From Gammaproteobacteria bacterium (GTDB taxonomy: Bacteria > Pseudomonadota > Gammaproteobacteria > GCA-001735895), in NCBI GenBank assembly GCA_050298595.1, contig JBNKUM010000081.1, forward strand, positions 1 through 10,327: a DNA stretch of 10,327 nucleotides, in the 5' to 3' direction. A program made the translations under genes and the position numbers. The notes below the pieces were generated by a model. That model did no database searches, was not told where the DNA came from, and worked only from the letters and a program-made list of their open reading frames with translations. Positions 1 through 10,327 of the stretch are shown piece by piece. The first letter of the stretch is position 1. Each line of letters opens with the position of its first letter.

Positions 1-415
1 CCGTGTAGTCATTGCTATAATTGTAATTTGAATAGCTTGATGACATCACAGTGATCACATCATCGCCTGCTCCACCATCAACCGTATTTGAAGATTGATA
101 GTGCAAGTTGATAGCATCCGATCCCGCGCCTCCATCAACTACATTTGTGCCAGAGCCATTGACCGTAATCCTGTCATCACCAGCACCACCATCTATCTGG
201 TCATTTCCACCATTATCTGTGATCTTGTCATCACCGGCGCCTCCATCTATCTGGTCATTTCCACTACTATCTGTGATAGTGTCATTTCCATCACTTCCAT
301 ACACAGCATCGTCGCCATTGCGTCCGTACAAATAGTCGTTACCGTCGAAACCGACAATGAAATCCCCTGCCTCGCCGCCATATATCGTATCAGCACCCGA
401 CGATCCGATGTTGGA
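1..415 (-). repeat. RTX Ca2+-binding nonapeptide repeats (GGxGxDxUx), continuing beyond the window; includes a 54-bp DNA tandem duplication at ~172-279
   Basis: [72 protein letters not shown]. The DNA unit beginning tgtcatcacc recurs at 172 and 226. Confidence 0.93.
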
Positions 416-3229
416 ATTGGAAGTAGTGACAAACCGGCTCATGGCGTCTGAAAGATCTGTAAGGGTGGCTGGATCAATTTCCACCAATGCGGTCAGCATC
501 AGCCACTGCCTGAAGATTTCTTCTTCGTTACCCTGGCTCACCGCTATGTCCACCAGCGCGTAATCGAATATCTGGGCATCAATGTCGGTATTGGTGGTCA
601 GAAGATCCGTTGCTGGATCGTAGGTCAGGCCTGGCGCGATATCCGACAACAAGCCGTTGGCCACCGCAAATTTCACCAGCAAGTTACGTGACAGCTCATT
701 GTAAGCCTGCCGGTAATAGCCGCCTGTAGTAACAATTTGACCATTCTCGCGCCACTGCCCATCACCCAAACGCAATACATCCATACCCGCGTATTGCTTA
801 ATCACGGCCAATTGTTCCAGTGTAAAGGATTCACCCGCCAGACGAAAATCTACCTGGCCCGTTTGTGTATTGACGTTGAGCCGGTGGCCGGGGTCGATTT
901 CGTCGATGGTGACACCTTCAACGCCTGCCCATTTGACCAGCAGCTCCTCAAAGCCCGCCACTAGAGATTTCGCAGTCGGCGCGGTGAATAAATCGAGCGC
1001 ATAATCCTTCAGACTACTGTCGAGGCTCATAGCCTGATGCAGATCGGGCATCTGGCCATAGCCCTTGATGTCGGCAAGCACCAATACATCTGGGTCTAGC
1101 GTCACTTCGCCCACATAGCGAGTGAAGGTCCGGTTGGACGCGAACGATACATCGGCGGCGATGCCAGATGTCTCAGCTGCCACACCCTGAGTGCCATCGG
1201 CCCAGGTAAAGTCACCCTGGCGCGCGATCTGTGCGTCGGTACCCGTTTGTGCTGCAACGTCAACGTAATTCAGGCTGATGCTGGCAATGCCTTCATCCAC
1301 CAACGAGCGCAACTCATCGCCCTGACTTATGCCATCGCCATTAACATCCTGCCAAACCTTCAGATCAGCGTATAGCTCATCGTTAGTGTCGATCACGCCG
1401 TCGGCGTTGCTATCCAGATCGGACAATTCTTCATAACCTGTGCGCTCCGGGCTACCGAACAGTTCGCCGATGTTGTTGATGGTGCCATCTGCGTTGCGAT
1501 CCAGAGCCAGGAATCCATCGTCGCCACTCAACCAGGAAGTACGCGTGGCAAAACCATCGCTATTCAGATCGAAATAGGCGTTGCTACCCTCTAGATTGGT
1601 CAGTTCTACACCGTCGCCATCAAGGTCGAGCACCAGTGGGTCACGCGGAATAACACTATCCGCGCCGTCACTTCCAGCGCCCGCGCCACTGCCAGCTCCA
1701 CCGCCGCCACCGCCCGAACCGCCACCACCACCACCGCCATCTCCATCTCCATCTCCATCTCCATCTCCATCGCCATCTCCATCTCCATCGCCATCTCCGT
1801 CTCCGTCTCCGTCTCCGTCTCCATCTCCATCTCCATCTCCATCTCCATCTCCATCTCCATCTCCATCTCCATCTCCATCTCCATCTCCATCTCCATCTCC
1901 ATCTCCATCTCCGTCTCCGTCTCCGTCTCCGTCTCCATCGCCATCGCCATCTCCGTCTCCGTCTCCGTCTCCGTCTCCATCTCCGTCTCCATCTCCGTCT
2001 CCATCTCCGTCTCCGTCTCCATCTCCGTCTCCGTCTCCATCTCCATCTCCATCTCCATCTCCATCTCCATCTCCATCTCCATCTCCATCTCCATCTCCAT
2101 CTCCATCTCCGTCTCCATCTCCATCTCCGTCTCCATCTCCATCTCCATCGCCGCCTCCGCCTGGAATATCGGTGCGCGTAACATCTCCAGTTTCATTGTC
2201 ATAGTCGTATCTGGTCGTATTTCCATCCTTGTCTGTAATCGTAATGTCGTCTATAAAACCATCACCGTCAGTGTCGTTATAAACAACGTTTTTTTCATTG
2301 GTATCAACAACCAATTTGTCTCCACCATTAGAGGTAATTATAAGCTCGCCCGTTTCTTTGTTGTACGAGATACCATCGGCTGACACTTGGTTATCGTACA
2401 CCCCGTCTTCATTTATATCTTTGCCACCTGGAAATGTTTCTGTAGTAGGGTCTGTTCCTGTATCTGTTCCTGAATCTCCTCCATCAGGGGGGGCATCGAC
2501 AGGAATATTTATTGCATCTCCAACGCCTATTTTGTCTGGATCGGTAATTTGAGGATTAGCGTCTAACAGTTCTTGTAAAGTAATACCATTTTGTTCAGCA
2601 ATTTTTGAAAGCGTATCTCCCGGTTCAACTATATATTGATCTGTTGCACCCGTTGGACCTGTTGGACCTGTTGGATCTGTTGGATCTGTTGGATCTGTTG
2701 GGTCTGTTGGATCTGTTGTACTGGTATCGCTAGGATCGAAGTCCCCAACATCATAACCTCCCAATAAGTCCAAGTATTCTGCTGGCTTTGTCCCAAAAGC
2801 ATCTTCTGGAGTTGTTCCATCTGTTGAATTAAGCCAGTTTGTAACGGCAGTAGCACCCACTAAATGAGCCGCAGCAATTAAGCCAGCTTCTGTAATATCG
2901 ACTCCATCTTTAGTCTGACCAATAAAATTGGTCGCACCACTATTTTCTAAATACCCTAGTACACGCTCGTGGTAAGCACTTACAGCATTATTTTGAGCAG
3001 CGGCAGAATTCAGAAAGTCTGAATAGGAGCTAATTCCATCAACACCAGTCCAGCTGTATGACTGATAATTGTTATTCATTGATCCGTCATGTGTTATATA
3101 TCCCGCATCTACTAATGCGGCCTCACCCATTTGATATAATCCCAAATAACCTAGATCATTGATTGCATTTTGATTTCCAGAAGACTCTCTTTGTGCCAAT
3201 GCATCTAAATAATCACCATAATTACTCAT
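1..3229 (-). CDS. Large RTX-family T1SS substrate, 3'-truncated by the window edge (>=1076 aa): lysozyme/SLT-like domain + LysM + (GD)69 linker + FrpC-like self-processing module + RTX repeats
   Basis: ATG at 3229-3227 follows a GAGGGA RBS-like sequence, 11 bp after the stop of 3241..3741. Manual translation gives an open frame to position 1, and the frame is consistent on both sides of the repeat. Landmarks: [39 protein letters not shown]..., [17 protein letters not shown]..., (GD)n, [14 protein letters not shown]..., GGAGDD repeats. No Sec signal peptide; very acidic and Gly-rich; hlyB/hlyD in the same gene string. Confidence 0.95.
1115..1642 (-). other. FrpC/ApxIVA-type Ca2+-dependent self-processing module (SPM); predicted cleavage at D530|P531 (codons 1642-1640 | 1639-1637)
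   Basis: [14 protein letters not shown]...[41 protein letters not shown]...[46 protein letters not shown] aligns motif by motif with the Neisseria FrpC SPM as I recall it (DPLALDLDGDG...DDGLLVRDLNGNG.IDNGAELFG...[21 protein letters not shown]). End coordinate is approximate. Confidence 0.9.
1739..2152 (-). repeat. 414-bp hexanucleotide microsatellite (69 units) encoding (Gly-Asp)69, aa 360-497, followed by a Gly/Ser/Ala-rich stretch
   Basis: Coding-strand units are GGAGAT (majority), GGAGAC and GGCGAT, all synonymous for Gly-Asp in the RTX frame. Confidence 0.95.
2501..2635 (-). other. LysM peptidoglycan-binding domain (aa ~199-243)
   Basis: [45 protein letters not shown] fits the LysM consensus YxVxxGDTLxxIA...L...N......IxxGxxLxIP. 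Confidence 0.93.
2642..2713 (-). repeat. 9-bp tandem repeat, 8 units, encoding a (DPT)5(GPT)2GAT linker between the catalytic and LysM domains
   Basis: Plus-strand units tgttggatc / tgttgggtc / tgttggacc read directly from the sequence. Confidence 0.92.
2750..3229 (-). other. N-terminal lysozyme-like/lytic transglycosylase-like domain of the RTX protein (aa ~1-160), putative catalytic Glu15
   Basis: Helix-RES-S motif (E15 codon at 3187-3185), then GYLGLYQMG (compare GLMQ motif II of SLT family 1) and LIAAAHLVG (compare AAYNAG motif III). Confidence 0.8.
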
Positions 3230-3240
3230 TGTAAATTCCC

Positions 3241-3741
3241 TCAATTACACATTTTTGTTAAATTTTTGTCGCTGATACTGATCAAATACGAACACCCCAT
3301 AGAACCACATGACCACTCGTTTAATAGATACATTTTTTTTTCAACTTTAGGCTTTACCTCAAAGCTTAAAACTTCAAAACCGGATGTTGCACCACCACCT
3401 GTGCATAGCGGTTTATCTTTAAAATAACTGTTAGGTTTTTTAATATAGTATTGACCGATTGGTATAAATATTTTTAGCTTTTTAAAAGCCCCGCCTTCAT
3501 AAAGCGATAATTTATAAACTCTGGACTCTACAATCTTATCAGTGGAAATTTCTCTTAAAGAAAAATCTGCTTTCACCTCACGCCTATTAAGTAGTTTAAA
3601 ATCTTCAAAATTAATATCGCCTATGTCTTTTTTACCATAGAATTCCTTTTTAATAATTTCATCAAGATTTTCAACTTCCTCGCAAAAGGCGTTTCCTCCT
3701 ATTCCTAATATAAATACAATTATCAATATAAATTTAAACAT
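3241..3741 (-). CDS. 166-aa exported (Sec signal peptide) hypothetical protein; candidate periplasmic immunity protein or partner of the downstream RTX hydrolase
   Basis: MFK + hydrophobic FILIIVFILGIG + GNAFC|EE, which looks like an SPase I site (NAFC is not a canonical lipobox). Lys-rich, with a C-terminal CGSMGC motif. Ends 11 bp before the RTX start. Very AT-rich. The function is inference. Confidence 0.8.
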   Translation of the reverse strand: MFKFILIIVFILGIGGNAFCEEVENLDEIIKKEFYGKKDIGDINFEDFKLLNRREVKADFSLREISTDKIVESRVYKLSLYEGGAFKKLKIFIPIGQYYIKKPNSYFKDKPLCTGGGATSGFEVLSFEVKPKVEKKMYLLNEWSCGSMGCSYLISISDKNLTKMCN

Positions 3742-3797
3742 ATATAATCACCCGCGAACTCATCCTATTTCTAATAAACACCAAGCATTAAACCTTC

Positions 3798-6700
3798 TCA
3801 AAATTCAAAACACCTCAACTTATATCCTAAAAGATCACGAAGCATTTCACTGTCATATATTGAGCAAGGCTTAGGTTGAAAACCACATTCATGATTAGCG
3901 CAAAAGAAAGGATACAACTGATAGTCAACTATTATCTGACTACCGATATTTTTAAACAGCATTCGAAAAAGTAAGCTATATGGAGGTACATTTCGTTTTC
4001 TGTACTCTCCGTTACTATTAAAAATAAAATTCCCCAGACTATAAATAACAAGCTTTCCGGAAAGCACTTCAATCTGCTGAGTCATATGCGCTCCATGACC
4101 CACAATCAAATCAGCTCCAGCATCCACATAATTTTTAGCCCACTTTTTCTGATTATCTGTAGCCCATTTGTAATTTACTCCCCAATGAGGCGAAACCAAT
4201 AAAAATGATTCTGGATATTCACTTTTAATACTTTTAATTCTTTCAATAACACTAGCTGAGGTAATATTACAGACACCCGCTTTATTTTCTGATGAATAAA
4301 TCCCGAATTGATTATCCTCATGCTTGTTATATGCATACCCAGATATAATAAATATCTTTTTTGAAAGATCCGCAATTTCAAGATCAATTTCTAGTGGATC
4401 TAAAGATTCTTCGCTATTATGACCAGCACCTATATATGGAATGCCAGCATTTTTCCATAAGTCAAAACTCTCTACGAGAGCCTTGTTTCCAAAGTCGCTA
4501 CTATGATTATTGCCTAACATAACACCGTCAATATTATAATTTTTTAGCACATCAATACTCGACTCTGGGTCTGCATCCAAAATCCAATTCTTAATTCCAA
4601 TTAACGGTGATTTTTTATGATGAGTTAATGCAGCTTCAAAATTAGCTAGATTCAGATCATTTTCAGTTAAAAACTTGGAAAGGAATCTAAAAGAATGCTG
4701 ATAACCATACTTATCCAGGTAATTTTTTTGACGACGTTTTTCTCTATCACGATCATAATATTCACCAAAATACGTATCACCAAGAACAGAAATACTGGCT
4801 ACATTCTTTTTTGATTTTATACATAGAGTTTTCTTTGAAGAGCACTTCTTTATAAAAGTCGTAGTATATTTAACTACCCGATGAATTGAATTATCAAGCA
4901 AATCCAGAGCAAAGCTGTTTCGATTTTTTTTATCGCTGCATCCAACAACTACTACAGCTACTTGTCTACCATTCTTATTTGATGTTATTGCAATGTTAAA
5001 ACCTGACTTTGGGGTTCTCCCAGTTTTAAAACCGTCAATACCTTTAACACCTAGTAGATCATTAGTATTTTTATACTTTTCTCCTCGAAATGTAAAACTT
5101 GTTCTAGAAAATTCTTTACATAACTCAGGGAATTTTATTTTAGCATGCTTGATTATCGAAAGGATATCGAACAAGCAGGTAATATGACCTTCATTAAAAA
5201 GACCGGTTGAATTTCTAAATTTAGATTTCCTCAAACCAAGTCCATTAGCATACCTTGTAAGATCTAGCGCAAATCCTCTTTCTGTACCTGAGTGCCATTC
5301 CGACAAAGCCACCATAGCTTCGTTTGATGATGATACCGCAACAGCCGATATCAGATCTCTTACTTTTACTAACTCTCCGCTTTCCAAGACCCACTTCGAT
5401 GGAATACTTGCTGCTTTATCGGATATACGAACACTTTGATTAAGTTGATTTGGATCTTGAATTATTTTCTCGTAAATAAAACATAAACCAAAGATTTTTG
5501 TAAGCGCAGCAGGGTATACAATTCGTTCGCATGAAATGGTAGAATAAACCTCTCCAGTAACCAAATCCATAATTGCTCCTGCGGTGGGATTCAAACATTG
5601 ATTACTACTCCTATTTTTTGGAGCTACGCATTTCTCGGACTCACTACTTCTTTCTCCAATTGATGAAGTCTTTATCAAACTTTTACAAATCTCACTTACC
5701 CCCGTTGAGTGAGATCCTTTAATCAGCACTACATCACCATCCTTAACAATAGTCTTCAAATACTCTTGCGCAGCCCTAACACTACATTTAAATCTCTTGT
5801 TAATATTTCTTTCAATATTTTTATATGTTTCTTCTATTTCTTTTCCTACAAAAATAAGTATATCAATACATGATGCATTTATTTGCTCGGATAATTTTAT
5901 GTGGGATTTCTTTGACTCCTTTCCTAATTCCAACATATCCGACATTACACAAATAGTGCGCTTAATTCTGCCATTGCTTGCATGTTTAATACTATCTATA
6001 TAGGTAATTGCCGCTTCCATCGAAGCTGGGTTTGCATTAAAACTGTCGTCAATTAGAATATAAGACCCTCTATCAACATTTAACACGTGGTGCTCCATTC
6101 TGCCTTTAACCGGTTCAAGTTTTGACAAAGCAGGTAGAGCTCGATCAACGTTAACACATAAGTATGGTAATGCAGAAATTGCCGCGACAGCGTTTAATGC
6201 GTTATGTTCACCCGACAAATTAATAAGAGTTGAAAAATTTTCTTTCCCAATTACAAACGCTAATGCCTGAGCAGTATCTATTATCTCTGTAGTTATTAAC
6301 CTACAATAGTCTTCTTCACACTTACCAAAAGTCACATTATTGTGATAGCCAAAAACATGTAATTTTTCCTCAATCAAAGCTGTCGTTTCAGTTTCTGAAG
6401 GATATACAACAAGGCCTGTATGATCTAAACCAGATAGAATTTTAAGTTTTTCGCAAACAATATTATTAAGAGTTAAGTGCCGCTGCAGATGCGCTTTTGA
6501 CATCTTCGTTAAAACAACCACATCTGGTTTAGCAAGATTACTGCTTTTCTGAATACTTCCTGGAGCACCAATAGCCATTTCATATACAGCGAAATCAGCG
6601 TCTGATGGAGTATTAATTATCGAAAGCTGAACACCAGCATATAAATTGTAATTTGCCTGTGTTCTATAAGTTTTGTACTGATGAGCAAGTAACTTTGATA

Positions 6701-7109
6701 ATATTTCCCGCGTGCTTGATTTGCCCACGCTGCCAGTTATTGCTACAACCTTCGCCTTCAGACGATTTCGATGAAATCGCGCCATTGATTCTAATGAATG
6801 CTTTACATTTCGTACAACCAAAGTTGGACGAGGAGGATGAAAGTCAACTGTACCGTCTACGATAAAACCTGATGCGCCATTTAAAACATACCTTTCTAAG
6901 CAACTTTTTAAGTTTCTTGTGTTAGCAGAAGATATAAAAACCATATCGCCAAATTGGAAAAACTTTTCTTCAATACAGAACGTGTCAATAACCCAATTGG
7001 ATTCAGGCTTGACCAACCATTCACCACTCGCTGCTAACATCAATGACTCAGCATTCCAAACCTCTGATGCACAATAGAAAACTTCATCACCTTGGATAGA
7101 ATTATTCAC
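3798..7109 (-). CDS. Three-domain fusion (~1103 aa): MurF-like Mur ligase + peptidase S11/PBP-like domain lacking the catalytic Ser + CapA/PGA_cap metallophosphoesterase-fold domain
   Basis: MurF motifs: AITGSVGKSSTRE (P-loop), YEM, GEHNALNA, PVKGR, LIDDSFNANPASM, DMLELG, LIKGS. S11 motifs: PAALTK, SSN, FRNSTGL, DGFKTG. CapA motifs: LGDTYFG, NFE, GNNHSSDFG, PHWG, GHGAH, YSLGNFIF. I prefer the GTG start at 7109 (GAGGAG 7 nt upstream, overlapping the upstream stop) over the ORF-track start at 7127. Confidence 0.9.
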   Translation of the reverse strand: MNNSIQGDEVFYCASEVWNAESLMLAASGEWLVKPESNWVIDTFCIEEKFFQFGDMVFISSANTRNLKSCLERYVLNGASGFIVDGTVDFHPPRPTLVVRNVKHSLESMARFHRNRLKAKVVAITGSVGKSSTREILSKLLAHQYKTYRTQANYNLYAGVQLSIINTPSDADFAVYEMAIGAPGSIQKSSNLAKPDVVVLTKMSKAHLQRHLTLNNIVCEKLKILSGLDHTGLVVYPSETETTALIEEKLHVFGYHNNVTFGKCEEDYCRLITTEIIDTAQALAFVIGKENFSTLINLSGEHNALNAVAAISALPYLCVNVDRALPALSKLEPVKGRMEHHVLNVDRGSYILIDDSFNANPASMEAAITYIDSIKHASNGRIKRTICVMSDMLELGKESKKSHIKLSEQINASCIDILIFVGKEIEETYKNIERNINKRFKCSVRAAQEYLKTIVKDGDVVLIKGSHSTGVSEICKSLIKTSSIGERSSESEKCVAPKNRSSNQCLNPTAGAIMDLVTGEVYSTISCERIVYPAALTKIFGLCFIYEKIIQDPNQLNQSVRISDKAASIPSKWVLESGELVKVRDLISAVAVSSSNEAMVALSEWHSGTERGFALDLTRYANGLGLRKSKFRNSTGLFNEGHITCLFDILSIIKHAKIKFPELCKEFSRTSFTFRGEKYKNTNDLLGVKGIDGFKTGRTPKSGFNIAITSNKNGRQVAVVVVGCSDKKNRNSFALDLLDNSIHRVVKYTTTFIKKCSSKKTLCIKSKKNVASISVLGDTYFGEYYDRDREKRRQKNYLDKYGYQHSFRFLSKFLTENDLNLANFEAALTHHKKSPLIGIKNWILDADPESSIDVLKNYNIDGVMLGNNHSSDFGNKALVESFDLWKNAGIPYIGAGHNSEESLDPLEIDLEIADLSKKIFIISGYAYNKHEDNQFGIYSSENKAGVCNITSASVIERIKSIKSEYPESFLLVSPHWGVNYKWATDNQKKWAKNYVDAGADLIVGHGAHMTQQIEVLSGKLVIYSLGNFIFNSNGEYRKRNVPPYSLLFRMLFKNIGSQIIVDYQLYPFFCANHECGFQPKPCSIYDSEMLRDLLGYKLRCFEF

Positions 7110-8754
7110 AGTTAAACTCCTCATCACAAAAGGAGCTATGTATCTTCAATAACGCCATCAATCCATGCTGCACATTATCAATTCGAATGGAGTTGTCGTA
7201 GACAGTAGTTCTCAGCCCACCCAGCACCCTATCTACATGCTTAATATAAAAGCAATCAATCTCATCCTTGAACTGCAATTGCATGAGGCTACGAATGCCG
7301 CGAACTATGACGGTGCGGTAGTTTTCGGCACGAGCATGATCACCACACTCTTTTGCCAGTTCGAATGCATCGATTAAACCTTCTAGATAGACCCCTGTCG
7401 ATGATGCATGCGGTGGACCAAAATACGTACGAGCTGGATCGTAGAAACGTCCTTGCATATCATGGAATTCAACCGAATCCCATTGCTGCATGGACAGCAG
7501 CCAGTCGTTCATTTCGAATATGAATTCCTTAAGATGCTCATCTCTGGTGACTTGCCAAACCAGGAAATAGGCTTGTGTATGCCAGGGTATGAAGGCGGGG
7601 TTACGATTGTCTCGGTGCCAGACCCTGTAGTAGCGGAAAGCCGCCATAATGCGCGTCAGTTCATCTGGGTTGCGACTGATGCGGTAGCGCGACGCGAGAA
7701 ACAACAGCGCTTCTCCGGAGTAGAAATTCTGGTTGTCCTTGCGTTCGCGCGGGATAAAAAAGGTGTCGAATGATCCATCAGAATTACCTAGCGATTGAAT
7801 CAAGGCGTACAACGCATATTCCTCGCTCAGAAAACGCTTGCGCTGTGGCGATTCAAAAATGGCTAGAGCTGCCAGCGCAGCTGCTCCCAGCTTGGCACTG
7901 CCATTCATCCAGATATAGCCTAGTTTGCCTTCGCGCTTTAATGTGGTTGAAATGTTATATGCCAGATTTTTTGCAGCAATAGCGGCGAGTTGATCACTAC
8001 CGAACGACATAGCAGCACGACCAAGGCACACCGTCGCCATCCACTGGCGAATGGCGTTGTTGGAAGATGCATAAGAGCCCTGGCTGGGCCAGTACTTGTA
8101 CTGAGCAGCACCTGATTCATTTACTTGAAAAGCAAGCCAACGAGTCATGGCCTGGGCACAGCGCAAAACGCTTTGGTGGTTGACGGCACTCACTTCCACT
8201 ACACGGTTTCCTCGAAACATTTCAACGGGAACAGTTTGACCGTGAGACGCAGGGCTGTTATCGCAGAAAAGTTGTTTAGTTTGATATAAGGTAACAAGGA
8301 CAGTAGTTTGTAGAGTGCTTTTTGATCGAAGGCTCGCCATATGCAGACTGAGCGCTTTGTTGAAACTGAGGTTTCGGGCGAGCATCTCAACGGCCGCCCA
8401 GTGAGTAGTTTTACCACCATGGTCAATCAGCATCGCTTGCTTTCCGCGTAAGCTATTCCATTGATCTTTACTTTTCGGATTCAAATGACGAACTTGCGGT
8501 GAAAACAGCATTTCCAGTTCGAACGAAGTGGCGCTCGACATAACAGACCCTAACTCCTGTTCAAGGTGTTCTAATGTGTTCTCGCTCGCACCTATCCAGA
8601 CAGCACGCAACTTTTCGCCTTGATAGCGAGCACAGACGTAAAGCCAGTGAAATTCAAGTTCGTATTTTTCTCGTTCCCAAATTGCAAGGGCTTCGTGCAA
8701 ACGCTGAAGTGCTAGATTAGGGATATTGGTTAGTTCTGCAGCCAGGACGGTCAT
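7102..8754 (-). CDS. 550-aa hypothetical cytoplasmic protein; C-terminal two-thirds probably an alpha/alpha helical toroid (six-hairpin glycosidase/prenyltransferase-like), N-terminal third possibly AMMECR1-like
   Basis: Long ORF starting 1 bp after the hlyD stop with AAGGAG upstream. Repeated helical segments separated by G-x-F/Y turns (GAAQYKYWP, LGAAALAALA, NSDGSF, FYSGEALLFL, PWHTQAY, STGVYLEGL, GGLR, IRIDNVQHGLMAL). The CDS is solid; the fold call is tentative. Confidence 0.8.
   Translation of the reverse strand: MTVLAAELTNIPNLALQRLHEALAIWEREKYELEFHWLYVCARYQGEKLRAVWIGASENTLEHLEQELGSVMSSATSFELEMLFSPQVRHLNPKSKDQWNSLRGKQAMLIDHGGKTTHWAAVEMLARNLSFNKALSLHMASLRSKSTLQTTVLVTLYQTKQLFCDNSPASHGQTVPVEMFRGNRVVEVSAVNHQSVLRCAQAMTRWLAFQVNESGAAQYKYWPSQGSYASSNNAIRQWMATVCLGRAAMSFGSDQLAAIAAKNLAYNISTTLKREGKLGYIWMNGSAKLGAAALAALAIFESPQRKRFLSEEYALYALIQSLGNSDGSFDTFFIPRERKDNQNFYSGEALLFLASRYRISRNPDELTRIMAAFRYYRVWHRDNRNPAFIPWHTQAYFLVWQVTRDEHLKEFIFEMNDWLLSMQQWDSVEFHDMQGRFYDPARTYFGPPHASSTGVYLEGLIDAFELAKECGDHARAENYRTVIVRGIRSLMQLQFKDEIDCFYIKHVDRVLGGLRTTVYDNSIRIDNVQHGLMALLKIHSSFCDEEFNCE
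7117..7122 (-). promoter_or_regulatory. Shine-Dalgarno GAGGAG for the GTG start at 7109, embedded in the end of the upstream gene
   Basis: Minus strand reads GAGGAG-tttaact-GTG AAT AAT. Confidence 0.7.
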
Positions 8755-8755
8755 A

Positions 8756-10168
8756 TCAGCGCTCCTTCAATGACTCTTGTCCATGACGCAATAAAGGCGC
8801 CATAAAAAACTCAATAATGCGTCTATGCCCAGTTTGCACTTCAGCCGTAACCGCCATACCCGGCTTAAGCTTCACATCTGTTCCATTTACCCTGATTGTG
8901 TTCGCATTCATTTTTATCTGCATGCCATATATCAACCCACGCTGCTCATCCACTGTTGCATCGTTTGATACAGACATTACTTCGCCCTCTATGACCCCAT
9001 ATTTAGTAAAAGGAAAAGTCTGTACCTTGATTTCCGCAGGCATGCCTTCTCGCACAAAACCGATGTCTTTATTTTCCAGCATGACCTGAACTTCCAGAAA
9101 TTCTTCATCGGGTACAATCTGCATCAGTTGCTGCGCTTCGGTTACTACACCACCCTCGGTACTAATCGCCAGTTCTTTCACCTGACCTGATACAGGGGCA
9201 TACAAAATTCGTTTCTGGTTGATGTCGCTTGCTTTTTTTAACTCTTCTTTTATTGAAGCAATCTGGCGCTGGTATTCTGCAACAGCACTTAACTGGGTTG
9301 CCAGACCTTCAGCTTCCATGACCTTTATCCTCTGTCTGGTTTCACCCTGAGAGGCTTTTAACTGATTGAGGCGGTATTTTTCTGCTGATAAGTCCTGGGT
9401 TTTCTCTATCCGTTCCTGCTTTAGTTGCAGGTAATCCATTTCTGAAGCAAATTTATTGGCGTACAGGTCTTGTATGTTTTTTGTTCTTTGCGTGACAATC
9501 GGCAGGGTTTGTTCGAGCTTTTGTATATTCGCCTGCGTTGCGTTTTGCTCTGCCTCGTTTCTTTCGAGTTCACTTTTTAATGCCTGTAGCTGTGCTCGAT
9601 ATTGTTGCCACTGCTGCCAAACTAGCTGTCTATACAGTTGAACTTCCTGTGCATCTGCCTGCGGGATTTCTTCAAGCTGGATTTGCGATAGTTGTATTTT
9701 ATTTTGTTCCTTTTCATTCAGTGCAAACAAAATGGCCAGCGCTTTGCTTAGTGATAACTGTAGCTGTGCAGCATTCAGCTCATTACTTAACCGATCCTGA
9801 TCCGCCAGCGTTGTAGTACTGTCCATCTCTACCAGCGCCTGTCCTTTGCTGACATTCTCTCCTTCATGCACCAATATTTTCTTGATCACGGCTTTTTCTA
9901 AAGGCTGAATCTGTTTGACCCTGGAGCTGGGGATTATCTTGCCTTCTGCCGAGGCGACGATATTGACTTCACCAAAATAGGCCCAGACGATGCCTAATGT
10001 TATCAGTATCAACAGGCTGCGTGATACCCAGCGTGTTAATGGGTGTGGTGGTGCTTCCTGTATTTCGAGTGCTGCGGGTAAGAATGCACTCATTTCACGT
10101 GATTTGTTGCTATCGCCCAACTTGTCTCGATTGGCCCAGGAGTCTTTCAGTACGGCTAGTGCGCTCAT
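8756..10168 (-). CDS. hlyD: HlyD-family type I secretion membrane fusion (periplasmic adaptor) protein, 470 aa
   Basis: AFLPAALEIQEAPP motif, single N-terminal TM, GKIIPSSRVKQIQPLE, long coiled coil, APVSGQV, GGVVTEAQQLMQIVP, NKDIGFV, FPFTKYG, PGMAVTAEVQTGHRRII. Confidence 0.97.
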   Translation of the reverse strand: MSALAVLKDSWANRDKLGDSNKSREMSAFLPAALEIQEAPPHPLTRWVSRSLLILITLGIVWAYFGEVNIVASAEGKIIPSSRVKQIQPLEKAVIKKILVHEGENVSKGQALVEMDSTTTLADQDRLSNELNAAQLQLSLSKALAILFALNEKEQNKIQLSQIQLEEIPQADAQEVQLYRQLVWQQWQQYRAQLQALKSELERNEAEQNATQANIQKLEQTLPIVTQRTKNIQDLYANKFASEMDYLQLKQERIEKTQDLSAEKYRLNQLKASQGETRQRIKVMEAEGLATQLSAVAEYQRQIASIKEELKKASDINQKRILYAPVSGQVKELAISTEGGVVTEAQQLMQIVPDEEFLEVQVMLENKDIGFVREGMPAEIKVQTFPFTKYGVIEGEVMSVSNDATVDEQRGLIYGMQIKMNANTIRVNGTDVKLKPGMAVTAEVQTGHRRIIEFFMAPLLRHGQESLKER

Positions 10169-10327
10169 ACCTCTCCCCTGTTGATGGCATGGCGGTTTTG
10201 ATCAACCGCTGTCTGCTGTTTGTTCTGCGAATCTACCGGGTGAAGATGCGGTGTGTGGCTCTGGTAACCGTGTAGCCTTGCGTAATAGCCATTCAGATGG
10301 ATCAGTTGATCGTGATTGCCCTGTTCT
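10165..10327 (-). CDS. hlyB: 3' end of an HlyB-type T1SS ABC transporter (5'-truncated by the window edge)
   Basis: Manual translation: EQGNHDQLIHLNGYYARLHGYQSHTPHLHPVDSQNKQQTAVDQNRHAINRGEV*. It begins with the typical E.G.H..L....G.Y..L...Q tail of ABC exporter NBDs. Its TGA overlaps the hlyD ATG (ATGA). Confidence 0.85.
   Translation of the reverse strand, partial: EQGNHDQLIHLNGYYARLHGYQSHTPHLHPVDSQNKQQTAVDQNRHAINRGEV

Follow-up and report, generated by a model that had tools for sequence, protein, structure and literature searches.

The window considered here is a stretch of 10,327 nt (contig JBNKUM010000081.1, positions 1 to 10,327 of the forward strand; assembly GCA_050298595.1, Gammaproteobacteria bacterium). 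All its genes are encoded on the minus strand, with little space between them; they are read here as a type I secretion operon comprising the genes for an ABC transporter, an HlyD adaptor, orf550, a three-domain fusion enzyme, a small protein (small166), and an RTX protein (Table 1). The latter appears as a composite. Its C-terminal part, referred to below as the carrier, consists of a self-processing module (SPM), a conserved region, and RTX repeats, and its N-terminal part of ~500 residues is referred to as the head. We propose that the head and the two genes upstream of it form an AT-rich unit of foreign codon usage, joined to the SPM-RTX carrier by recombination in the Gly-rich segment preceding an Asp–Pro bond, and that such heads and upstream genes are likely exchanged between carriers as in polymorphic toxins, with the polarity inverted. 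The probability of this reading, taken jointly with the operon assignment and the exchange, is put at roughly 0.7.

Table 1. Features of the window (positions refer to the whole 10,327-nt stretch; T1SS, type I secretion system; GC3, G+C content at third codon positions; RSCU, relative synonymous codon usage)
Feature	Position	Strand	Evidence
HlyB-like T1SS ABC transporter gene, 3' end	10165..10327	-	C-terminus LIHLNGYYARLHGYQSH resembles the ABC gene upstream of HlyD in locus L004
HlyD-family T1SS periplasmic adaptor, 470 aa	8756..10168	-	TIGR01843, 361.8 bits vs cut-off 208.65; Pfam HlyD_3
orf550, flank-like GC3, outside the AT-rich block	7102..8754	-	no Pfam or NCBIfam family
AT-rich low-GC3 block (~0.26): fusion gene, small166, RTX head and GD linker	1740..7109	-	GC, GC3, RSCU
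Fusion gene, 1109 aa: MurF-like Mur ligase + Peptidase_S11 + PGA_cap/CapA	3798..7127	-	Pfam
small166, 166 aa, signal-peptide-like N-terminus; candidate immunity protein or binding partner	3241..3741	-	
RTX gene, 3'-open, at least 1081 aa	2..3244	-	runs off the window at base 2
Head catalytic domain, aa 6 to ~170, lysozyme/lytic-transglycosylase-like	2735..3229	-	
(DPT/GPT)n linker, 9-bp repeat, 9 copies	2638..2718	-	repeat scan, translation
LysM peptidoglycan-binding domain, aa 204-248	2501..2635	-	Pfam PF01476, E 5.5e-12; PDB LysM matches
Middle segment, aa ~255-350, D/N/T-rich, without family	2195..2482	-	translation
(Gly-Asp)n microsatellite (GD array), GAT GGA units, 68.8 copies, period 6, 94% matches	1737..2149	-	
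Gly/Ala/Ser-rich pre-SPM segment ending SVIPR; GC3 flip, probable recombination joint	1646..1739	-	
Asp534-Pro535, predicted Ca2+-dependent self-cleavage bond	1640..1645	-	FrpC Ca-SPM alignment starts at Pro
SPM, aa 535-689	1178..1642	-	6sjw/6sjx FrpC, E 3e-33
Conserved post-SPM carrier region, aa ~690-934	443..1177	-	48-73% identity to related carriers
RTX nonapeptide repeats, aa ~935-1081	2..442	-	NF033943; 27/54-nt repeats at 172-300

The RTX gene contains a pronounced step in base composition. Computed over 300-nt intervals, the GC content amounts to 0.51–0.60 over positions 301–2250, 0.41–0.45 over 2101–3150, 0.28–0.39 over 3001–7200, and 0.43–0.52 over 7051–10200. At third codon positions, the low side comprises the GD array (GC3 0.240), the head (0.267), small166 (0.257), and the fusion gene (0.263), and the high side comprises the carrier (0.555), orf550 (0.490), and HlyD (0.456); pooled, 428 of the 1623 codons of the block end in G or C vs. 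789 of the 1567 codons of the flanks (chi2 193, p 6e-44). The relative synonymous codon usage (RSCU) of the head, small166, and the fusion gene is intercorrelated (r 0.62–0.82; head vs. fusion gene, 0.82; head vs. small166, 0.71), the correlations of the block genes being −0.14 to −0.34 with the carrier (−0.14 for the head) and −0.06 to 0.07 with orf550. Since small166 and the fusion gene are also rich in the amino acids with AT-rich codons (FYMINK), a long residence in an AT-rich genome is suggested. Overall, the AT-rich block looks like one unit which evolved in such a genome.

GC3 rises from 0.28 in the 40-codon bin that begins at aa 481 to 0.53 in the next one, which begins at aa 521. This flip, at window positions ~1680–1800, places the left edge of the block at ~1740, at the junction of the GD array and the Gly-rich stretch (the latter delimited by the repeat scan at 1686–1739), about 100 nt upstream of the Asp534–Pro535 codons. 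The right edge coincides with the stop codon of orf550 and the start of the fusion gene (7102–7127). No direct or inverted repeats flank the block; the repeat search returned nothing beyond microsatellites inside it and short pairs of low identity. The initial annotation had surmised the step from hand counts of six 60-nt lines, five of which are exact (the line at 7681 holds 33 G or C, not 32); the step survives the full computation of sliding-window GC, GC3, and codon usage and turns out sharper than in the hand counts. Its placement of the block at about 2200 to 7100 holds for the right edge and for the position of the left edge within the RTX reading frame near the GD array, but the left edge itself moves to ~1740 by GC3: total GC puts it near 2200 because the first and second codon positions of the GD array are G/C-rich. 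As a separate observation, the carrier itself is compositionally non-uniform, GC3 dropping again to 0.30–0.40 in the RTX repeats (aa 961–1041, within window positions 2–442) vs. 0.5–0.7 in the SPM and the conserved region.

The identity of the carrier is clear from its SPM, which matches the Ca-loaded SPM of FrpC (6sjw) in a phmmer search over 154 residues starting at Pro535 (the structure itself begins at P415 of FrpC). The start of the module reads RD534-P535LVLDLDGDG, so the Asp–Pro dipeptide marks its N-terminal boundary, and W451 and W519 of FrpC, reported to stabilise the Ca-loaded SPM fold (PMC7078468, accessible text), have conserved Trp counterparts. Hence, Asp534–Pro535 is the predicted Ca2+-dependent self-cleavage bond. 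Downstream, the NF033943 RTX_toxin model matches aa 946–1065 (E 1.6e-19), with a score far under the whole-protein cut-off because only a fragment of the RTX region lies in the window; Pfam HemolysinCabind was not reported for the RTX protein at E<=0.01, and GGxGxD-type repeats are nonetheless visible in the translation. The RTX gene probably starts at the ATG at 3229 behind GAGGG, 11 nt past the stop codon of small166.

Carriers of this kind are abundant: 5924 of 8000 scored sequences are related to aa 525–1081 at E<=1e-3. The scissile position reads Asp–Pro in 77 of 116 carrier homologues and Ser–Pro in 29, with a few Pro-, Cys-, Trp-, or Gln-Pro variants; those without Asp–Pro may be incapable of self-cleavage via the Asp-anhydride route. 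A genome scan gave 74 related loci (numbered with the prefix L below; the source genome of the window is not among them), the best carriers belonging to Microbulbifer taiwanensis (73% identity), a gammaproteobacterial metagenome-assembled genome (72–73%, two loci), and Cellvibrio mixtus (64%). The similarities of the carrier and HlyD are incongruent: in L001, the carrier is 73% and HlyD 40% identical to those of the window, and L004 and L039 possess an HlyD 57% identical to that of the window, the L004 carrier being 55% identical. The carriers, too, may be mobile with respect to the secretion genes. SPM-like modules are encountered farther afield as well, with heads and upstream reading frames in Saccharibacteria (L041, L045, L048, L054–L056; Lipase_3/Mbeg1-like heads and membrane-anchored upstream reading frames), as well as in Streptococcus (L065, L071) and in Clostridia and relatives (L046, L057, L070), i.e., in lineages with no outer membrane or no classical TolC-type T1SS.

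The head is not shared by the closest carriers, as expected from the initial annotation, which had suggested an exchangeable N-terminal cassette. Among the best 120 carrier homologues, the catalytic head recurs in one (P0003, 47% identity) and LysM alone in another, and neither the head nor small166 nor the fusion protein gives a tblastn match in the 74 related loci. The 108 heads of carrier homologues fall into 59 BLAST clusters, and the 27 carriers of at least 45% identity bear heads of at least 13 clusters; these counts are lower bounds, because single-linkage joins unrelated heads via LysM, RTX, and low-complexity linkers (cluster 0). Recognisable Pfam heads among the loci include the AHH nuclease (3), Lipase_3 (9), Phage_lysozyme (2), M23, LysM (2), ADP-ribosyl cyclase, PPPDE, and DUF6973, and 36 heads have no Pfam family.

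At the same time, homology among carriers breaks at one place. Carrier alignments start between −9 and +2 relative to Asp534 in 112 of 116 usable matches, a one-sided test since the query itself began at −9; with the full-length query, the alignments start at aa 532–533 in all seven closest loci. In plasmids, 142 records match the carrier, and the match starts at the SPM in the 12 of them listed. Two paralogues of the metagenome-assembled genome, L002 and L012, are 90.5% identical at the nucleotide level over 2255 nt, starting 102 nt (34 codons) before the Asp–Pro codons, and carry unrelated heads; the boundary of identity places a probable recombination joint in the Gly-rich pre-SPM segment. 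Segments related to this stretch precede Asp–Pro in L001, L002, L004, L007, and L012. Accordingly, the earlier suggestion that the repeat or the SPM start could act as the joint is borne out as far as the start of the module and the segment adjoining it are concerned.

Composition points in the same direction. Head GC3 is lower than that of the carrier by more than 0.15 in 17 of 66 loci and the reverse is found in none; the flip lies within ~30 codons of Asp–Pro in L001, L002, L005, and L012, and other loci, too, combine a low-GC3 head with a low-GC3 gene upstream. The linker preceding the SPM varies as well, each relative having a low-complexity repeat of its own: where the window has (GD)n, L003 has (NG/DG)n, L012 has (GDGDGDGAGEGDED)n, and L007 has (GGGAGGGE)n. 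As the length of each unit is a multiple of 3 nt, slippage would alter the length of the spacer and keep the frame. In L007, the assembly is interrupted by a stretch of N within the linker (~9655–9900); what looked like a frameshift separating the head from the SPM in this locus was rejected, as it corresponds to this gap. The same locus has a segment between head and linker analogous to the middle segment of the window.

The head in the window is best described as a lytic-transglycosylase-like domain followed by a LysM domain, as far as modelling and motif conservation tell. In its RESSGN...GYLGLYQMG region, Glu20 and the Gln do not vary across an alignment of 64 family members (the invariant residues of the family being E, G, Q, Q, and H), and an E-S motif with the catalytic Glu, followed by a G-L-x-Q-type motif, is characteristic of the lytic transglycosylase and lysozyme-like superfamily. 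The AlphaFold2 model of the catalytic domain has a mean confidence (pLDDT) of 90.2, and the PDB fold matches listed for it are Slt, Slt70, MltE, MltD, or g- and i-type lysozymes, except for one resuscitation-promoting-factor entry (rank 34). The sequence profiles stay below their thresholds: Pfam SLT reaches 18.2 bits vs. 21.3 (E 0.0019) and Transglycosylase-like reaches 17.3 vs. 27, and a PDB sequence search with the head returned LysM matches only. The 165-aa domain family has no Pfam assignment and numbers 2887 representative clusters at E<=1e-3 (1021 at E<=1e-10); in a sample of 40 members, 12 possess RTX repeats and 28 lack them, PG_binding_1, NlpC/P60, M23, or LysM occurs in 5, and 16 have no Pfam family. 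The SPM start motif is present in 7 of the 150 family members listed. A curious member is P0155 (180 aa), whose first ~112 residues are 74% identical to the head of the window and are followed by a sequence resembling the C-terminal ~70 residues of HlyD; the fusion is either a scar left by recombination or a chimera created during assembly.

Upstream of the heads, candidate immunity genes recur. In 60 of the 66 loci with a complete head, a same-strand reading frame ends between −30 and +300 nt from the start of the RTX gene (in one case, it is HlyD itself). Imm11 is found upstream in all six loci with AHH heads or heads clustering with AHH, and in L007 (Cellvibrio mixtus) the gene before a lysozyme-like head encodes an exported protein of 403 aa that contains the lysozyme-inhibitor domain LprI. 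A hydrophobic N-terminus is seen in the upstream reading frame in 0 of the 6 Imm11 loci, in 8 of 9 next to lipase heads, and in small166 (N-terminal hydrophobicity 3.26, signal-peptide-like). The N-terminus of small166 ends with GNAFC, a poor match to the lipoprotein lipobox consensus. The Atlas neighbours of small166 are unnamed clusters (0.85–0.86), and the nearest named cluster is PliI (0.81), a lead only. A complex prediction for the head (aa 6–175, 64-row alignment) and mature small166 scored 0.00 and, the fold of small166 being uncertain, speaks neither for nor against binding. Since small166 has no relatives, we infer its putative immunity role from its position, codon usage, and signal-like N-terminus. 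Thus, the expectation of an upstream immunity gene is confirmed by family in relatives (Imm11 in six loci, LprI in L007), and for the window itself it comes down to these three traits. Two unrelated records, L051 (8885–9472) and L076 (Burkholderia ambifaria pBMC401, 3860–4405), have a DUF5625 protein directly upstream of the SPM-RTX genes, so DUF5625 is a further candidate immunity family.

Duplicated and solitary modules were also encountered in relatives. In L012, the small gene together with the 5' portion of the head has been duplicated in tandem (713 nt, 92% identity), and at 4453–7532, 1.6 kb before the main DUF6973-SPM-RTX gene, the locus contains a second DUF6973-RTX gene (868 aa) with a lipoprotein-like gene upstream; the presence of this second gene with a small gene of its own makes the locus an array of related modules. 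In L002, an SLT-like reading frame of 121 aa followed by two small exported reading frames is probably an orphan module. Hence, the orphan head and immunity cassettes anticipated earlier exist in L012 and probably in L002, and none was found within the window.

The other two complete genes between HlyD and small166 differ in their affiliation with the block. The fusion gene likely starts with the GTG at 7109 behind GAGGAG, overlapping the stop of orf550 (the ABC and HlyD genes likewise overlap, in ATGA). Its product contains Mur_ligase_M/C, Peptidase_S11, and PGA_cap domains according to Pfam; the TIGR01143 (MurF) model scores 279.4 bits, below its cut-off of 288.6, so the protein is filed as MurF-like and not as MurF. 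The S11 domain (window positions 4848–5630) is recognised with 123 bits, but its SxxK motif reads AALTK, the nucleophilic Ser being replaced by Ala with the SxN and KTG motifs kept. Five tri-domain relatives (30–48% identity) are found; the three closest read SLST (Lys replaced by Thr), and a more distant one is canonical. Judging from these motifs, the S11 domain looks like a non-catalytic D-Ala-D-Ala-binding module in a cytoplasmic fusion; no signal peptide was seen in the protein. Plasmids yielded partial matches only (<=48% coverage) to ordinary Mur ligases or unannotated regions. As for orf550, a homologue with 56% identity stands directly after HlyD in L007 (4318–5967), and the gene may be a T1SS-linked accessory; its Atlas neighbours are unnamed clusters with partial (alpha/alpha)6-type families, which hint at a toroid-like protein but are again a lead only.

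Taken together, the following sequence of events can be envisaged. The protein would be exported by the T1SS, C-terminus first, and extracellular Ca2+ would fold the RTX repeats and the SPM. The latter would then cut the Asp534–Pro535 bond, freeing the head, which may become cross-linked via the Asp anhydride. LysM would bring the head to peptidoglycan, which the head would cleave, and small166, exported by its signal-peptide-like N-terminus, would bind the head, thereby protecting the producer and its kin. The inverted-polarity layout of a polymorphic toxin suggested by the initial annotation thus finds its counterparts in the diversity of heads, the joint at Asp–Pro, and the upstream immunity families of the relatives.

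A number of observations weigh against this reading. The fold matches of the head are weak (best E 0.015, TM ~0.41, none at E<=1e-3), and its large family is often combined with peptidoglycan-binding, NlpC/P60, or M23 domains and without RTX repeats, so a member need not be a toxin. Small166 retrieves only itself among 5.8 billion proteins, has no family (nothing in Pfam at E<=10, none in NCBIfam), and its single-sequence AlphaFold2 model has a pLDDT of 36.8; its link with the head is made up of nothing but adjacency, codon usage, and predicted export. Moreover, the T1SS bypasses the periplasm, so an exported immunity protein presupposes that the head re-enters from outside. The counts of head and upstream-gene pairs are not phylogenetically independent, because related species share both. 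No large difference in GC3 between head and carrier is seen in 49 of the 66 related loci, and the mean difference of −0.094 could partly reflect carrier-specific codon bias. The fusion gene takes ~3.3 kb of the 5.4-kb block (~60%), has no place in a toxin and immunity model, and occurs in 0 of the 74 related loci. Finally, the RTX gene being 3'-open, the C-terminal secretion signal is outside the window.

These points feed several competing explanations. The head could be a secreted bacteriolytic or wall-remodelling exoenzyme serving feeding or autolysis, with small166 unrelated to it or acting as an FrpD-like surface tether that keeps the cleaved head on the producing cell. The company that the head family keeps (PG_binding_1, NlpC/P60, M23, or LysM, with most sampled members devoid of RTX) would fit this, as would the origin of the closest carriers in the polysaccharide-degrading marine genera Microbulbifer and Cellvibrio, the lack of a known immunity family in small166, and the fact that FrpD was first proposed as a tether or adhesion partner (PMC5233953, accessible text). 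Still, Imm11 and LprI occupy the same position in relatives, the heads include the AHH nuclease, for which a feeding role makes no sense, and cassette-like turnover with duplicated modules is typical of conflict systems; hence, we consider an exoenzyme unlikely. A further idea concerns the fusion enzyme, which might be a second means of self-protection, editing the cytoplasmic peptidoglycan precursors and so making the wall of the producer resistant to the head. This would be compatible with the proposed exchange of heads, since it merely assigns a function to a gene sharing the codon usage of the head (r 0.82) and its operon; all three domain families act on peptidoglycan stem peptides or poly-amino-acid envelopes, and the tri-domain form is rare. 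The idea is pure inference, though, and sits poorly with the absence of a signal peptide and of any link to RTX genes elsewhere, with a head that looks like a glycan-strand enzyme and not a peptidase, with the missing S11 nucleophile, and with the MurF score just under the cut-off, which makes it quite doubtful.

The composition step could also have other origins. A single accidental island insertion, fusing a foreign reading frame to a resident RTX gene with no recurrent exchange, would account for the uniform composition over 5.4 kb, for the large toxin-unrelated enzyme gene in the block, and for the absence of small166 and the fusion gene from 74 of 74 related loci. It is nevertheless very improbable, as 112 of 116 homologues and seven of seven close loci have their boundary at the SPM start too, unrelated heads sit on paralogous carriers of 90% identity, and low-GC3 pairs of head and upstream gene are found elsewhere. 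Least credible of all is a native step, produced inside a single gene cluster by its amino-acid content, by its repeats, or by a codon bias tied to expression. The carrier is indeed Gly/Asp-rich and repetitive, carriers tend to exceed heads in GC3 across loci, and GC3 falls inside the RTX repeats too; but the difference resides in synonymous sites and RSCU (head vs. fusion gene r 0.82, head vs. carrier r −0.14), the non-repetitive flanks HlyD and orf550 share the high GC3, and the FYMINK-rich small166 and fusion gene indicate a long stay in an AT-rich genome. The exchange of an AT-rich head unit at the pre-SPM joint therefore remains the reading we prefer.

Among known systems, the closest counterpart is FrpC/FrpD of Neisseria meningitidis (and ApxIVA), with which the window shares a homologous SPM, an Asp–Pro at its N-terminal edge, a C-terminal RTX region, neighbouring T1SS genes, and a small exported protein encoded directly upstream (FrpD or small166, respectively). 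Unlike FrpC, the window has an unrelated head of the lytic-transglycosylase-like and LysM type and a long (GD)n spacer before the SPM, and no similarity is detectable between small166 and FrpD. In the accessible text on the frpDC operon, FrpD binds the N-terminal fragment of FrpC at 0.2 nM and an adhesion role is considered for FrpC (PMC5233953); elsewhere, FrpC has been hypothesised to be an antibacterial effector with FrpD as its immunity protein (PMC6759196, accessible text). The function of FrpC itself is thus unsettled between these two views.

With the polymorphic toxin systems (CDI/CdiA-CT, Rhs; PMC3482391), the locus and its relatives share a conserved trafficking part combined with alternative toxin domains, an adjacent immunity gene (a candidate one in the window), and low-GC cassettes; duplicated or orphan modules and the AHH/Imm11 toxin and immunity families occur in the relatives. 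In the classical layout, the toxin is C-terminal and the immunity gene lies downstream; the window has the putative toxin at the N-terminus, the candidate immunity gene upstream, and the carrier at the C-terminus, so the locus is filed as a variant of these systems. The polarity is inverted because the T1SS signal is C-terminal, and release would be effected by the Ca2+-triggered SPM in place of the peptidase or HINT domain of classical polymorphic toxins. A small exported protein beside a muramidase-like effector is also found in another kind of system. Periplasmic immunity to peptidoglycan-degrading effectors is provided by Tsi-type proteins of type VI secretion systems and by lysozyme inhibitors such as LprI and PliI, and L007 has a true LprI domain at this place. 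Small166 differs from them in lacking a family match at any threshold tried, and the delivery in the window is by a T1SS.

Partial precedents exist in the literature. The accessible text of Zhang et al. 2012 (PMC3482391) mentions the T1SS only as the route of large RTX toxins. Burroughs et al. (PMC12419801, accessible text) describe Min-Wnt/Lipocone domains N-terminal to RTX repeats, which they read as T1SS export, and the type IV secretion effector Smlt3024 has been noted to resemble the N-termini of RTX proteins, its immunity protein being structurally FrpD-like (PMC6759196, accessible text). As far as these texts go, each report deals with a single domain family and without an SPM joint, an upstream-immunity rule, a composition step, or orphan modules. 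No general account of an SPM-RTX protein with an N-terminal head and upstream immunity was found in the full-text literature, a search in which subscription journals were not covered. Thus, the locus appears to represent a new version of the polymorphic toxin theme in which the self-processing RTX carrier is a known one; the hypothesis on FrpC and FrpD had anticipated it.

The broader proposal, for which we see even odds, is that all SPM-RTX proteins, encoded by thousands of genes and including FrpC and ApxIVA, are the chassis of a widespread T1SS-borne polymorphic toxin system with upstream immunity. Ca2+-triggered self-cleavage at Asp–Pro would stand in for the releasing peptidase, and cassettes of head and immunity gene would be swapped through recombination in the Gly-rich or microsatellite linker preceding the SPM. 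A bolder corollary would be that the Asp anhydride pins LysM-guided heads to amines of the target envelope and that the MurF/S11/CapA enzyme protects the producer by stem-peptide editing. The function of FrpC-like clip-and-link RTX proteins has been open for decades, and their SPM is used as a protein-engineering tool. If the interpretation proposed here is true, the SPM would serve to release the toxins of an antibacterial system that uses type I secretion and swaps its cassettes, with AHH/Imm11, the lysozyme-like head and LprI, and the head and small166 of the window as candidate pairs. The T1SS would then be added to the routes by which genuine polymorphic toxins are secreted, and the inverted polarity would be explained. 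The rare MurF/S11/CapA enzyme would be flagged as travelling with a wall-targeting head, and the genes upstream of SPM-RTX carriers would be worth mining for toxin heads and immunity proteins of unknown kinds.

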